Below the pieces are notes generated by a model, which was not told the DNA's origin, searched no databases, and saw nothing but the letters and a program-made list of their open reading frames with translations. Made by a program: the position numbers and the translations under genes. A stretch of DNA of 64,000 nucleotides from Squalus acanthias (taxonomy: Eukaryota): contig CM059432.1 of NCBI GenBank assembly GCA_030390025.1, forward strand, positions 17,982,001 to 18,046,000, written 5' to 3'. Of the stretch, positions 2,546-58,900 are shown one piece after another; positions within the stretch are counted from its first letter, which is position 1, and each line of letters starts with the position of its first letter.

Positions 2546-2638
2546 CATTACTGCAATACCTTCATTCTCCAGTGGAGTCTTGTCATACGTGGAGTCACAT
2601 ACTCTCACAACAGTGGTTACACCATACTTTTGCAGCTC
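2546..2638 (-). CDS. PTP4A3: PTP4A3-like second coding exon, aa 36-66 (not in the ORF track)
   Basis: Acceptor ctttcctcccctttAG|, 93 nt encoding [31 protein letters not shown], donor |GTAAGT. Joins exon 1 in phase 0 and places Cys at 49, the redox partner cysteine of PRLs. DKTPLE is PTP4A3-like. Confidence 0.93.
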
Positions 2639-10168: not shown

Positions 10169-11705
10169 ATGGATAGCAACAAGTCTGCACACTGGCGCCA
10201 TGGTATCAGGTTGTGCGTTTTTTTGTATTTTAGGCTCACTTCTTTCGATTTATTTTTGAAAGCAAATGTATGTATTTTTAAATAAATATATTCTAAAGGA
10301 AATTTCAGCTGGTATCAAATAGTTCGACTGCACTGGTACATCCAGACTGGGAATTATGCCAATTTTATTGCAGTAGACACAGCTGGCTGAATACTGACCC
10401 TTTGAATATGTCCCCTGATCAGGGCAGACCAGGCATCTTACTCGTGAACTTTCAGTGGGCCATTCATGAAGAAAGCATCTGGCACCGAATGTGCTCCATT
10501 TTCTTTTTTCAAAAAAAGGTCCAATTCTACTTCAGTGTAGTGGACTACAAAAATATTATTTTATTCCTCAAAGTACACTCTTTCCCACTTCAGAACTAGG
10601 GTGCTTTTATATTTGATGCAGTTAGACATATCACTCCACTTTGAATCAGAGGAAAAGTCACACCCAAAACATTAAGCTATTTCTCCTTCAAATGCTGACA
10701 GACCGGACCTATTGTACATTCACAGTGGGACTTATTTTCCCCTTGCACTTTATATTTCTATTTAAGAGATTTTGCATTTCTTAAATTTGTGGAGGGGGAG
10801 CAAGGAAAGTGAAAGAATGTTTCAATTCAGATTATGGCAATGCAAATACCTCTAGGAACTTTACTATTGGGTAGCTTATGAGTTTCATATTAAATATTAG
10901 TTTAATTTTATTATTGTTACAAAAGTCTGAAGCAGTAACATTTCGTTACTGCAGGGCCTGGACATTATTGAGATTAGGATCGGCCTCTTCAAGCTGAATG
11001 CAATTTAGTTGTTACAAGCTATTCACCCCAATCAAGCAGAGTAAAAAAAGTCAGTAAATATCCACAGAAACACTTGCACATCTCCTGCCCCCTGGAAAAA
11101 CAGCAAAAAGGAAACTAGATCAGACATTCAACAGCACTGTAATCTGAAATGTGCCACGGTTCCATTTCTGATCCTTTTAGGTTGAAAGCTTTCAGTTTAT
11201 ACATCTAAAATGCAATTTAAGAGGTATTCTTTGTTCAAGTCTTCAATGCTGTGGAATGCACTACCAGAGTTAGTGACTGAAGCAGAAACTAAGTCAACAT
11301 TTAAGAAGAGGTTAGATAAATTGTTGAAGGCAAAGAGAATTGGACGAGTGTCTGTGTGAAAGATAAACACCAACATGGACTGGTTGGGCCAAACAGTCTG
11401 CTCCCGTGTAGTAATTTCTATGTAATTCTAGATGTTGACCAACTTGCTGTGCACCTTAAATCACTGTTTTTATTCCAAGGATACCATTAATAACCAGGAC
11501 CCAAACACAAAATCACTAAAAAGCTAATTTTGGAATCACCAACAAGCACTATTCTCTGAAGTATGAATTAATGGGAACCACAAACTATCCCAACACATGG
11601 CGGTTCTTCAGCTAGTCATATTTAGAGTTTCAGTTTGAACATCTATTAGATTACTTCTCGAATACTGTAAACTATAAACGTTCTGTTTCGCACTTCAAGA
11701 CTCAC

Positions 11706-11810
11706 CTCTATAAATGCACTCAGTGTGGCATTTGTAGGATTGTGGGTAATGAGAAACCTCATGTGTTTGTAAGAAACTTCCACGGGTGCAGGGCGATTCA
11801 TACGGGCCAT
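11706..11810 (-). CDS. PTP4A3: PRL phosphatase (protein tyrosine phosphatase 4A, PTP4A3-like), first coding exon, aa 1-35
   Basis: ATG at 11810 reads [35 protein letters not shown], followed by donor GAG|GTGAGT (plus-strand actcac 11700-11705); 105 nt. VSYKH and TLS match PTP4A3 rather than PTP4A1 (VTYKN, TLN) as recalled. Confidence 0.93.
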
Positions 11811-12273
11811 GGGGTTGGAACCAGTGGCACAGAAGTATATCAGTACGAAGTCTGCAAATGATCCCAATCTCTCCAAGTTAGTACATGTGCACTATCTTCA
11901 TAGGATTTTGGACTTCTTATTGCAGCAAGGGAATGAAATATTCTTCTTTGAACCTTTTTGTCAGTCTCCTCTTTTCGCTTCTCGTTATTCACTCTCCTTC
12001 AAACCATGAACGATTCTACATTCAACAGTCCAGTCACCCCATTTGGAGATGCATTGCAAGGCAGTAAGAATATAACTGGAGATGCTCAACAGGCCAAGTC
12101 TGTTATCTCTCCTATTCTTATCAAAAAAACTTTTGATGGTTAATCCAAAGTGGTCTTCTTCAGGTTCTTGCTCAGATTTACTTGTCTGCAAAGATGCTAT
12201 GTTGTGCTGGGCAATAGCCACTGCTGTTTCTCACAAACTCCATAAAAGTGTGCTGAAAGGAGCTGTTGAACCA
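11811..12273 (-). other. 5'-UTR part of the first coding exon of PTP4A3-like
   Basis: Strong acceptor tatttctttctctttctAG|tggttc (AG at 12274-12275). Repeat-free stretch contiguous with the ATG; PRL genes have long leaders in this exon. Confidence 0.75.
12178..12243 (-). promoter_or_regulatory. Conserved-peptide upstream ORF, 21 aa MEFVRNSSGYCPAQHSIFADK*
   Basis: ATG 12243 to TAA 12178, 30 nt inside the predicted exon start. Same length and C-terminus (C-x-AQHSIFADK*) as the human PTP4A2 uORF peptide as I recall it (MAILSVRADFCQAQHSIFADK). Confidence 0.85.
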
Positions 12274-13321
12274 CTAGAAAGAGAAAGAAATAATAGTTTT
12301 AAAGCTGCACAGCTGGAAACTTACACATCTGAAGTAACTGCCAGTACCAGGATGATATTATGGTAGAAGAGCAAAATGGATGACTTGTCTCATTTTCTTG
12401 TTGGATTACTGACTAGTGAATGCATCTAATACAAAGAGTTTGCATCATACCTCACCTAAAATGTCAATCTTCAAACGATTTTGTAAAAGCCATATGACAA
12501 GTGTTTCTTGCTTTCAAAAGAAAATGCCAACACTGTACTGTATTTAGTACAAACAAACTAGGCACAGTGGGATATGCAAAAACAACTTATAAGACAAGAC
12601 TCACCCTTCAAGTATGTTCCCAACATCCCTGAGCAATGTTTTGCATTTTCTATTGTTCTCGAGTTATTCTACTCATCATACCAGCTATCCAACCATCTAG
12701 CACTTCTTACACCTTTTCCTTGGCAATGTGGATGCAATTAAGTGTTTTGGCAGTACCTGCCTTAACCTGTCTTGTGGGTTTGCTAGTTGGACTGCACAAG
12801 GTGGTTAAAATACAAATATGCTTTAAAATTAAAAACTCGTTAGGCTTGTATTACGATTCGGACTCAGAAGACTGGTAATTATGGGATAAAACAGGAGAAT
12901 ACAAAACTTCTTTAGATGCAGATCATAAACTGGAATTAAAATCTTGACTGCTGCCAACTGAACATATCAAAATAATAATTTATTACAGTAATTACTATTC
13001 ATTAATGGGAGACCATACCAATGCTTTGACTTTTAGATAAGTATTTACATGTGTACTTTTCATACATTACACATTCAGCATGAATTAAAACAGATTAACA
13101 GCTCATGTACATACAGAGACACATATACAGTAAATACTGCCATCCGTCCTGCGTTTAGCTGTACAAAAATGAGTGAGAAAGTGGTCAAAAAGATCATTGT
13201 CTGATTCAGTACGAAGGAGGTGATCAACTGGGATGGCCATAAAGAACTTGGGGTGCTTAAGCAGCAACAGTTTTCATTCAGCTTCCTTACAACAATTGGT
13301 TTTAAATACTCTATCGTCAAA

Positions 13322-13950
13322 ATAGAACCATAGAATAGCACAGCACAGAAGGAGGCCATTCGGCCATCAAGCTTGCACCGGCTCTTGCGAAGAGCAATCT
13401 AGTTAGTACCACACCGCCACTCTTGCCCCATATCCCTGCAAATTTTTCTCCAAGTATCAACTGCACTGCCCTCATCCACCCTCTCTGTTACCTCATCAAA
13501 AAACTCAATCAAGTTAGTCAAACACGATTTGCCCTTAATAAATCTGTGCTGGCTCTCCTTTATTAGTCCTGCTTGTCAAGTGGCTGTTAATTTTCTCCTG
13601 GATTATTGTTTCTAAAACCTTCCCCACCACCGACATTAAACTGACTGGCCTGTAATTGCCAGGTTTATCCCTCTCCCCTTTTTTGAACAAGGGTGTAACA
13701 TTTGCAATCCTCCAGTCCTTTGGCACCACCCCTGTATCTAAGGAGGATTTGAAGATTGAGGCCAGCACCTTTGCCATTTCTTCCCTTACTTCCCTCAGCA
13801 ACCTAGATGCATCCCATTCAGGCCGGGTGACTTATCCACTTTAAGTACTGCCAGCCTTTCTCTATTTTTATCTCATCCAGTATCCCAGCAACCTTCTCGT
13901 TTACCGTAGCCTTGGTAAAGTCCTCTTCCTTGGTAAACACCAATGCAAAG
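13322..13950 (-). mobile_element. CR1 LINE, internally deleted (RT N-terminal part joined to the 3' UTR)
   Basis: VPKDWRIANVTPLFKKGERDKPGNYRPVSL in ORF 13535-13801; CR1 tail at 13322-13455. Confidence 0.85.
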
Positions 13951-14996
13951 TACATGGTTACTCAGTATTTAAATCAAAAATATTAGTCAATTCCACCCAA
14001 AATTACTCACAGCTATCCTCTGCCGAAAGGAAGCAAGGATGTTGGCATCAGTGATCCGGATGTTTAGCAATCATTGATACCTGATCCATAAAGAGAGAGC
14101 GGATTGGAGCCTCAATGTGCTGCACCACAGATTGGGATAGCACAAGAGCTGGCAATTGCCCATGCCCTCCCACGTAGCAAGTGCTAATATCATGTGGGTA
14201 CCAGGACTTTTCCCCACAGGGAGGAGACACTGGAGGGAGAGTCATCCATAACCATTCTCTCATACGCCTCCTTCGAACTAGTTTCAGAACAATGGAGGCT
14301 AGAAAATGGATATGTGCACTCCTATCAGGAATAGTATTTGGTCATCAAATGTTTAGGAAAACAAGTCTGCAACTGGTAGCAATTACAGTAACAATGATGA
14401 CAGAAAACAAAGAGACAAGGGGGGGGGGGGGGGGAGAAAAACTTCCAAATGTTTGATTCGAATTTACTCCTGAGGAACACATTACTAGATTATCTGAAAA
14501 AAAATGTGGGGTTGAGCTGTACAATAAAACAATGAATTAACATACAAAATTAAGCAGCTACAATGCTATCAAGAAAAGACAGTATATTTCTCTCTTTCTG
14601 GAAATATAAAGAGAGAACACCACTTTGGGACTTATTGTATACTTGGGGAGTGATAAACAAAATGCGTCTATGTCAAGGTTTAGAACTGTTTGACGGGACG
14701 TTAAGTCACTGCTCTGTTCATTCTACGTCATTTGACCCCCACTCATTTACAATACAACAATTTTGGATAGCCAAAGCAATCTTCCCTTCTTGCCAGGTAC
14801 TTGCTGTAAAGCAATCATAACTACTTTTTAAAATGAACAAGCTGGCTGATATATATTTTACCAACTTCCTATCATATTAATGCTCAAAGGAAATTGCCGC
14901 ACGGACTATTTAGAAACATTGATGCACAAAGACAGAACCCACAAACCATAAAATCCTTTTAAGTGTCATTAGAACTGGGTTTTCACAAGCCTTTTA

Positions 14997-55974: not shown

Positions 55975-58900
55975 TACATTAAAATAAGGACAGAATGGGG
56001 ACAGACTTCTATCTGCACACCCTGGACCAATTACTGCCTTCCCACTAATGCCACAGGGCCCAAGATCTACACTTAGTCTTGACACCCCACGTGTAATGTT
56101 ACGGGAGATTTAAGAGTATGTATAAAAATATACAGAGAGATGAGGAAACGTTGGGGACCAGAAATGTCCAAACTCAGTTCACAGTCTCTTACAGTCAGCA
56201 GAGAGAACAGATCTTTATACTAGATTTAAACCCAAGTTCCAGAGGCTTGAAGAACAGTGTGCTCATAGCGCAACCCAGCTGCTTCCCCCCAATGCCAGCT
56301 TTGCATTTTTAAATTTCCACTTTCAAGAAGTTTGCCATGTCAAAAAAAGAAAGTTGTACAGAATTAAGATTTTTGCGACTGAACTCTGAACTAAAGAAAT
56401 CACAATATGTTGAGATCATGTTGGCGTACCATTTTACTCAAATGGTTAAAGAAAGCATTCTTTCTAATCGATTTTGGAAAAAAAAGGTTGCAATGACTTC
56501 TGAAATGAGCGATTTAAAAATATTTTAATCGTGGGCCCACTACAAATCAGGGTCTTCAATGTCCATGGAAACAGTTATCATCATACACCAACTAAGAAAA
56601 GTTACAGGAAACGTATCATTTAAGGATTATTTTGGCAGCACACTCTCATATTCCATAATAAAATCAAAATAAAGTATGTATATATCTTCCAATGGCCTCC
56701 CTAAATTCACATTAAATGAGACCCTCAGAAGATGAATGTTACCTTTCAATGAGGTACTGCTGTTTTGGGTAGGGAAGAGGGGCGTGCACCATTTCTCACA
56801 TGCAAGCAACACATGTTTTTGCAGCAGTTAGATGGAGTTGTGATTTATATCAAAATACTTGTACGTTAAGTTTGAAATACTTTTCAATGGTAATATATAC
56901 ATGCGTGCACAGATATGCATGCACACATTTCCACAGTGAACTATCCCATCACTTATGTCCAATGTTGAAATGGAAAAGCACTACTTCATAGAAATTTAAT
57001 AAGTATGTACACCAATACTTAAGAACTACTTTTATGTTATATAGTTGTTACATTTGGCAAGTCTTTTAAAGTCAGCAGACAGGGAGGAGTGACGGCTCAG
57101 TATAGTATTACAAATAACAACCAGGAGACAGTTTAGCAACTGGCTGCAATATCAAGTGTTACTACATTAATAGATAGTTTACCCACACCAATTGTAATAC
57201 TTACCTACGTTCCCTTAAAAGTTTCATGTTTAAATCTCAATAGTTAACATCAACCCTTGAATTAGAATTCTGACAGATTCTCCCGCCCAACACACCGATC
57301 TCTAATAGAAAATGTACTTAACCAAGCCTTTTAAATGTGGAACAGAAATAAACTTACTGAGTGGCAAAATGTGGTGGTTACTTCCTGCTCAATAGCCGTA
57401 AAATCCTGTTGACATTTTCTTGGAGTATCCCCTGATCAGCAGAGAAGGATTCACATTCTTCCCAAAGCTTTTTGCTTTGACAGTCTGAACACAAACAATG
57501 TGGTTTTCAAAAACTTTTGATAAAATATACGCACACAATGAACGCACGAATACCTCATCTGGCAAGCCAGCGAAAACTGACAGAATCACACTGTGCAGCT
57601 GCAGCGAGATGTTCTTTCCCTGTCTCCGCTTATCCGAATGCTTCGGACCTTCCCCTTACTTCTCAGATAAACCCCAAACGATGTATTTCCTGCAAGTCAA
57701 TGTTTGCCTATGCAACGTCTGTGTCCAATTAGCAATCTCAAATGACAGCTTAGGGAGAGAGAAAAAAAGAGGCCGCCTCAGTGGGGAACTGAACAGCCAT
57801 TCAGTTGGCTGTAGCACAAATCTGTAAGGTCTAGTTGCTCTGGCCTAATGCCAGCACCTGCAGCAGTCCAACCCTTTTCTACAGAACAGTATGTTACTCA
57901 TTTTGGTATAAGTTCTGGAGTATGTCATTCAACAAAACCAGAAAAAGGAGTTTACACACCCATTTCTGATAATTACACAAATAGGGAAGACAATGACCGG
58001 AACTCTACATGGGTTGAGACTGCCCAAGTCATTCATAAAAAGGAAACCTGGGATTTAATTCACTCGTCTGCTAATCTAGTGGGGTGGGGGGGCGGGGAAG
58101 AGAGAAGGGGCAAGGGGGAAGAGAGTGCATTTTGAAGAAGCTTAAGATCTAGCATAATTTTTATTTTGAGCTTATCACAATTTCATTACACATTTCAGAA
58201 CATAGTTGAAAAGTTATAGCAATAGCAATAACTTTCTGATGGGCCTTTTTCAGGAGGGCCTGGAACCATTGACTGGAACAGATTTCAGTTACAGCATGTG
58301 GTGGATTCAACAGCACCAGTGGCAACAACCAATCATACAGGCTCAATCAGCAGAAGTTTGAAAGTTGTGCATCAAGATTTTCATTTCTGTTGCAGTGCTT
58401 CCCCAACGTCGGGAAGTAGTCTCTACAGGTCAATAAACAGAAAGCTGCAAGCAGGCCCGTTCATGGCTAGAAAAGATGGTGATTGCAAATAAATGCTAAA
58501 GTTGCCAGTGGCAATTGTCCTGGGAAGAGCATAAAAACTACATAGGGATGGTTCTCCAACTCAGAGGCATTTCATTCCAAGACAACAATGCTATTGTCAG
58601 CAGCCTGCACTGAATGTAAAGGGGCATCAATATTCCTTTTTACAACACATTTAAAAGTGCATTACCCTTTATTTGGATTCTGTAACACAAGTACAGAGAC
58701 TTTTTCACGGCTGCAATCCTCAGACTAGTTCACAGGTTATAAGCTTCTGAGGCACAAACCATCTTCAACAGTTTTTCTTGCACCCCATCTGGTGGCTCAG
58801 TTGAGAAATGTCAAAGCTTACCTAAAGACTACAAGAGCATCTTCTTGCCTACTTAAGAGTCAGTGCACTCAAGTAAAGTAATTCAGTGTTTCAAGATAGT

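Follow-up and report, generated by a model that had tools for sequence, protein, structure and literature searches.

A PRL-family upstream open reading frame with an altered core in the spliced PTP4A3 leader of Squalus acanthias

Upstream open reading frames of the PRL genes

The upstream open reading frames (uORFs) of PRL genes form a known family. The Mg2+-sensitive uORF of PTP4A2 (PRL-2) was reportedly described by Hardy et al. in 2019, and a reporter for the PTP4A1 uORF is said to be the work of Takahashi et al. in 2020. RefSeq annotates members from PTP4A1, PTP4A2 and lampreys. The human and mouse PTP4A1 peptide has 44 residues and starts ahead of ten linker codons that precede the part shared with the shorter forms (Crowe et al. 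2006, supplement). The PTP4A1 uORF represses in a sequence-dependent manner, a frameshift derepressing the reporter (PMC7530721); its peptide is conserved to fish (PMC3914846), and PTP4A1 resists stress-induced shut-down (PMC4383229, PMC11347596). The PRL-2 leader gives a Mg2+-specific translational response in a reporter (PMC10083557). Mg2+ sensitivity is lost or disturbed when the coding sequence of the uORF is rearranged, and the model presented is one of stalling, with AMPK and mTORC2 involved (reviewed in PMC11855589). Two other sources (PMC8728433 and the preprint 10.1101/672840), in the parts available, add nothing further on the PRL uORF, and the way in which it senses Mg2+ is not settled in this literature. 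For PRL-3, the cancer-linked paralogue, the reviewed translational control is that by PCBP1, and a GCCCAG motif is described for the binding of this protein to, and its control of translation of, human PRL-3 mRNA (PMC10967961). We found no report of a PTP4A3 uORF, of conservation of the peptide in invertebrates or of a circle-encoded peptide in a literature search that covered subscription journals thinly; a PTP4A3 copy, or conservation in invertebrates, may already be on record in Hardy et al. 2019 or in the supplement of PMC7530721.

The spliced PTP4A3 leader

The gene considered here lies partly in the window, the whole stretch of 64,000 nucleotides that was analysed. Its five coding exons encode a protein of 173 residues. 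In an unrooted tree of 22 rows, this protein groups with cartilaginous-fish ‘PTP4A3-like’ proteins and bony-vertebrate PTP4A3, and a 99/99 branch parts this group from PTP4A1 and PTP4A2. The closest named match among the proteins compared is a catshark protein (159/173 residues); primate PTP4A3 matches at 144 of the 173 residues, versus 138 for armadillo PTP4A1. Separate genes of PTP4A1 type (C9) and PTP4A2 type (C16) are present in the same genome. The FAK1-type FAT exon of PTK2 lies at C8:16.47 Mb, 1.5 Mb from the PTP4A3 gene at 17.99 Mb, and 2.7 Mb away on the other side, at 20.66 Mb, is the AGRB_N of an ADGRB gene, which of the ADGRB paralogues being uncertain. The human order at 8q24.3 is similar, with PTK2 and an ADGRB gene as neighbours of PTP4A3. 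By tree and neighbouring genes, then, the gene is PTP4A3, the identity that an earlier note on this DNA had proposed from sequence.

That note also described a 21-codon uORF 30 nt after a predicted splice acceptor and 367 nt upstream of the main ATG, without naming the strand. It is on the minus strand (Table 1) and reads MEFVRNSSGYCPAQHSIFADK, followed by a stop codon, the plus strand giving a different reading; both distances are borne out, the AG of the acceptor lying at 12275-12274 and the main ATG at 11810. The acceptor is real as well. Contigs from four public runs, each from a different study, cover the exon that carries the uORF, with their edge exactly at 12273 and no flanking intron. 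None of these runs is recorded as RNA; their RNA origin is shown by the spliced junctions they contain. The 568-nt exon is joined to the next coding exon (window 2638 onward) in all four, and in three to an exon 45 kb upstream, the GT donor of which adjoins 57358. The uORF is present in the spliced PTP4A3 mRNA leader, since the junctions on both sides of its exon are spliced in the run contigs.

Table 1. Features of the PTP4A3 leader and first coding exons (window coordinates)
Feature	Position	Strand	Remarks
Conserved-peptide uORF, 21 codons	12178..12243	-	U at -3 and G at +4 of the AUG; stop codon TAA
568-nt exon	11706..12273	-	463 nt of leader and first 35 codons of PTP4A3; back-spliced form in one run
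Ten stop-free codons in frame with uORF	12244..12273	-	Likely relic of a longer uORF
Overlapping 25-codon uORF, other frame	12197..12273	-	AUG made by splicing: A at 57358 and TG at 12273-12272
GCCCAG	12207..12212	-	Sole copy in exon-2 leader; overlaps Cys-Pro-Ala codons
Met-Gly-stop mini-uORF (ATG GGG TRA)	12034..12042	-	Also in both paralogues, L021, L023 and L024
Upstream non-coding exon, 3' end	57358..57387	-	30 nt as loose ends; followed by GT donor; lacks ATG in frame with conserved uORF
First PTP4A3 coding segment	11706..11810	-	34/35 residues identical to solved PRL-3
Second coding exon	2546..2638	-	Three further exons beyond window start (L004, L005)

Short open reading frames are common, positions 11000-14000 alone being overlapped by 29 that encode 20 aa or more, so the uORF might be a chance ORF or one confined to an intron. 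The splicing of its exon into mRNA in every run speaks against this, as do homologous uORFs in the same place in both paralogues. So does a shuffle test: against the PTP4A1-paralogue uORF it scores 12 matches in 21 residues, and no window of 20,000 Markov-shuffled leaders scores above 9. Splicing, paralogues and shuffles together rule out a chance or intronic ORF, to which we leave a negligible probability. The same score, with the homologues returned by protein searches, upholds the proposed homology to the PRL-1 and PRL-2 uORFs. A DNA search for a second copy of the region found none in the genome, by a method insensitive enough to miss the paralogues too.

The spliced leader holds other candidate regulatory elements. 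An AUG created by the 57358/12273 junction, which is identical in the three runs showing it, lies 31 nt upstream of the conserved AUG, and its reading frame stops within the conserved uORF. Further downstream is a Met-Gly-stop mini-uORF, found also at L002:1296, L021:146, L023:261, L024:1264 and in the C16 paralogue (L003), and thus in all three paralogues; here it falls within an 87-nt block (11986-12072) that has no listed substitutions in X9 and X13, runs from two related species. If exon 1 is 284 nt long, as one contig suggests, the leader contains 11 upstream AUGs, which would make the conserved uORF one brake among several. No RNA structure beyond that of shuffled sequences (z -0.12), and no stable fold, was found. 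Inverted repeats flanking the exon within 8 kb are short (41-99 nt, 76-83%). An intronic stretch at 12612-12791 has a match of about 84% in a low-depth X13 contig, and may be a conserved non-coding piece or a repeat.

One of the four runs, X5, contains a 60-nt contig that joins the end of the 568-nt exon to its start, at a depth of 24.7 versus 54-58 for the linear junction contigs. This fits a circular RNA, around which the frame of the first 35 PRL-3 codons would continue across the ten linker codons and on through the uORF, for a computed chimera of 66 residues. The frame of the uORF might then be kept because the circle is translated into this PRL-3/uORF peptide. The contig itself favours the idea, as does the in-frame fusion, which computes equally for C9, L023, L024 and L025, the C16 junction being in frame too. 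The same layout appears exactly, for PTP4A2 exons 2-3, in an unnamed 94-aa database protein (P0199), and circPTP4A2 is a described circle (PMC11017462). The linear 44-aa PTP4A1 uORF, whose start is in the upstream exon and which has its match in the PTP4A1 gene of this genome, nevertheless accounts for the phase in full, and a junction seen in one run of four could come from template switching or trans-splicing. We consider translation of the circle a very improbable reason for the frame.

Homologues, core and constraint

In the PTP4A1-type (C9) and PTP4A2-type (C16) genes alike, a homologue of 21 codons begins 30 nt past a predicted acceptor. Because all three paralogues of this genome have it, the uORF is older than the split of PTP4A1, PTP4A2 and PTP4A3, as had been supposed. 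The 30-nt spacing from acceptor to AUG, the ten stop-free codons and the length of 21 codons recur in all six full-length leaders compared. A metagenome scan gave 15 loci, of which six (L030-L035, 44-45% identity) looked bacterial and were dropped, and two (L022 and L027) had leaders that were too short. The uORF is present in all five of the remaining PTP4A1/2-type loci (L023, L024, L025, L028 and, in part, L029), and in neither of the two PTP4A3-type leaders from bony vertebrates (L021 and L026), with neither test complete: the leader of L026 may include another exon, and L021 is probably cut off, because it begins where the end of the uORF would lie, 145 nt before its own Met-Gly-stop (elsewhere the uORF stop sits 102-155 nt before this element).

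Two of these loci have peculiarities of their own. L021:1-23, in a mammal-type PTP4A3 leader, opens with a His codon and reaches a stop five codons on, 122 nt before the Met-Gly-stop; this is where the end of the uORF is expected, and is not significant alone. The likeness of these first codons to the end of P0212 is likewise not significant (E 0.34). The uORF at L028:490-558, in a PTP4A2 locus of teleost type, is 22 codons long through the insertion of one; it sits about 1 kb ahead of the main ATG and apparently occupies a separate exon.

Homologous peptides extend beyond vertebrates, a point absent from the earlier note. Protein searches gave 46, 97 and 86 overlapping matches, among them many ‘LOC128125822 homolog’ entries and peptides of lampreys (Petromyzon XP_075923389.1 and Lethenteron XP_061410167.1), three molluscs (Mizuhopecten OWF55764.1, Elysia KAK3782820.1 and Argonauta GAB1609138.1) and an ant (Camponotus EFN68935.1). 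The mollusc and ant homologues are filed as hypothetical proteins (P0164, P0194, P0198 and P0249; unnamed P0161-P0165, P0207, P0212 and P0234-P0246), and their sequences suggest a bilaterian origin of the uORF peptide. Six unnamed peptides of 52-72 residues (P0274, P0275 and P0278-P0281) have the same core, but one residue is inserted after M-E and the tail is rich in proline.

In PTP4A1 and lampreys the uORF starts in the upstream exon and encodes 36-44 aa, which the earlier note had missed. In the PTP4A1 gene of this genome, too, the end of an upstream exon matches, and an in-frame Met lies six codons ahead of its donor. This long form explains the fixed, phase-0 spacing of 30 nt. For PTP4A3, no in-frame AUG occurs in the upstream exon used in three runs, and no alternative donor fitting the long-form pattern was found at window positions 12274-64000 or in the 20 kb beyond; no upstream exon was found for the C16 paralogue. 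The PTP4A3 uORF is therefore a short form, like that of amniote PTP4A2. Judged by their sequence, the ten codons upstream of it are likely a relic of the longer uORF, and two of their conserved glycines have changed.

The deeply conserved core, G-D-Y-C-Q-A-Q-H, is altered at three sites in PTP4A3, to S8, G9 and P12. None of these residues occurs in the 152 aligned homologues (anchored from 161 stored, nine being dropped; the rows are not independent and are mostly PTP4A1 orthologues), which have G/A/R, D/E/N and mostly Q (148) at these positions. An intact core of the form G/A-D/E-Y/F-C-Q-A-Q-H is thus not found; Y10, C11, A13, Q14 and H15 are kept, and M1, C11, A13, Q14 and H15 are each shared by 147-150 of the 152. 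The string C-P-A-Q-H is in no stored protein, such collections being ones outside which unannotated 21-aa products would fall.

The human PTP4A2 peptide, as the earlier note gave it, is correct letter for letter (P0167 = NP_001401656.1, LOC128031832 in RefSeq). The match claimed to it holds in length, at Cys11 and over the nine C-terminal residues, which are identical; it is weakened by the three altered core sites, and by the fact that the nine include three variable positions. S, I and F of the shared SIFADK are found in 17, 7 and 15 of the 152 homologues, and the PTP4A2 of this genome has G-L-L; S-I-F thus occupies the columns that vary most, and the likeness may be partly convergent. The statement that third codon positions differ holds in codons 11-21 for an amniote-type PTP4A2 locus (L025) used in place of human DNA: pS is 0.95 and pN 0.07, a pN/pS of 0.08 (p 2.5e-5) for a region chosen after the match had been seen. 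Over the uORF, pN/pS is below 1 against all five homologues compared (0.41-0.64; Fisher p 0.02-0.29) and significantly so in two of the five pairs. In X9 and X13, the 66 nt of the uORF have no listed substitutions and the 367 nt that follow have 24 and 26, respectively (p 0.017 and 0.012); one difference per contig is unlisted and, were it inside the uORF, p would be 0.08 (X9) and 0.06 (X13). The ten upstream codons are as fully conserved (0 of 30 nt differ). With less than one synonymous change expected, these zero counts fit constraint on peptide or nucleotides alike, and the PTP4A1 uORF is also low in synonymous change (pS 0.08, C9 versus L024). The comparisons establish constraint on the uORF, of either the peptide or the RNA.

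Possible function and relation to known systems

We estimate at about 0.6 the probability that the uORF acts as a translated, peptide-dependent brake on PRL-3 synthesis. By analogy with PRL-1 and PRL-2, some scanning ribosomes would start at its AUG, the context of which is moderate, and the nascent peptide would slow or stall them near the stop, so that fewer would reach the main AUG and PRL-3 output would fall. In the model for human PRL-1 and PRL-2, low Mg2+ relieves the brake through AMPK/mTORC2, and PRL rises, binds CNNM and restores Mg2+. Granted a brake, we put at about even odds that this one, too, is relieved when Mg2+ falls. For the brake we count its place and length, the retention of M1, C11, A13, Q14 and H15, a pN/pS below 1, the absence of listed uORF substitutions in X9 and X13 and the published findings on the PTP4A1 and PRL-2 leaders cited above; against it, the uniqueness of S8, G9 and P12, the two bony-vertebrate PTP4A3-type leaders, neither of which showed the uORF in an incomplete test, and the 11 upstream AUGs. 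If there is a brake it is likely to have been re-tuned in PTP4A3, because it has no start in the upstream exon, has three core substitutions, and would lose some ribosomes to the splice-made AUG, those starting there being expected to pass the conserved uORF by.

The uORF might instead be a functionally reduced relic, its AUG and frame persisting as a generic repressor or through RNA-level constraint near the acceptor (splicing, back-splicing, or RNA-binding proteins such as PCBP1), without Mg2+ sensing. Several features would follow naturally: three core residues unique among 152, with the acidic residue 9 lost and Q12 changed to P; the missing exon-1 start and altered glycines; upstream codons conserved in X9 and X13 as fully as the uORF; the coincidence of the Q-to-P change with the sole GCCCAG of the exon-2 leader; and the want of a uORF in both L021 and L026, incomplete as those tests are. 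Yet the length, the stop position and the residues C-x-A-Q-H...A-D-K have been kept, with synonymous changes in those very codons, over a span of more than 400 million years, and the RNA structure is not beyond that of shuffles. We regard a relic as possible, if unlikely.

A bolder reading would make the peptide a pan-bilaterian nascent-chain sensor of Mg2+ or energy, from ants and molluscs to humans, with the cartilaginous-fish PTP4A3 copy re-tuned by core substitutions fixed under selection, and with a circle that may yield a chimera. We hold this to be speculative and doubtful. Were it true, the core changes and splice-made AUG would pinpoint the residues that set the Mg2+ response and show how PRL-3 was loosened from the feedback on PRL-1 and PRL-2. 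Active residues could be mapped with the natural variants available, namely a third paralogue whose core changes are defined and invertebrate homologues that end directly after A-Q-H. They also raise the question of whether an ancestral Mg2+ brake of PRL-3 was lost in bony vertebrates or is still there unannotated.

Among described elements, the circular RNA circPTP4A2 (hsa_circ_0007364) resembles this locus in that a PRL gene is back-spliced at the acceptor of its first coding exon, and differs in comprising exons 2-3 of PTP4A2 (PMC11017462), the candidate PTP4A3 circle being of a single exon and seen in one run. The peptides of lampreys, molluscs and the ant share the M-E-F start and the Y/F-C-x-A-Q-H core, and those of molluscs also V4 and N6-S7; unlike the PTP4A3 copy, all keep G/A-D/E and Q12, and the invertebrate ones are without the A-D-K end; for all of these peptides a position in a PRL leader is putative. 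The PTP4A1 uORF (44 aa; ‘LOC128125822 homolog’ in RefSeq) is alike in the 12 of 21 residues shared with the copy in this genome, in the acceptor-to-Met spacing, in H-T-F before the Met and in the Met-Gly-stop mini-uORF downstream; it starts in the upstream exon, whereas the PTP4A3 copy has no in-frame ATG there and the ten codons ahead of it have drifted. The human PTP4A2 uORF (LOC128031832 / NP_001401656.1) belongs to the same gene family and is alike in its 21 codons, in the 30 nt that separate the start of exon 2 from the AUG (a position checked on L025), and in Cys11 and the last nine residues. It differs in that the uORF described here is on PTP4A3, with an N-terminal half of the PTP4A1/invertebrate type, with P for Q12 and G for D9, and with a Mg2+ response that is putative. 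The PTP4A3 copy is a conserved member of the PRL uORF family with an altered core.
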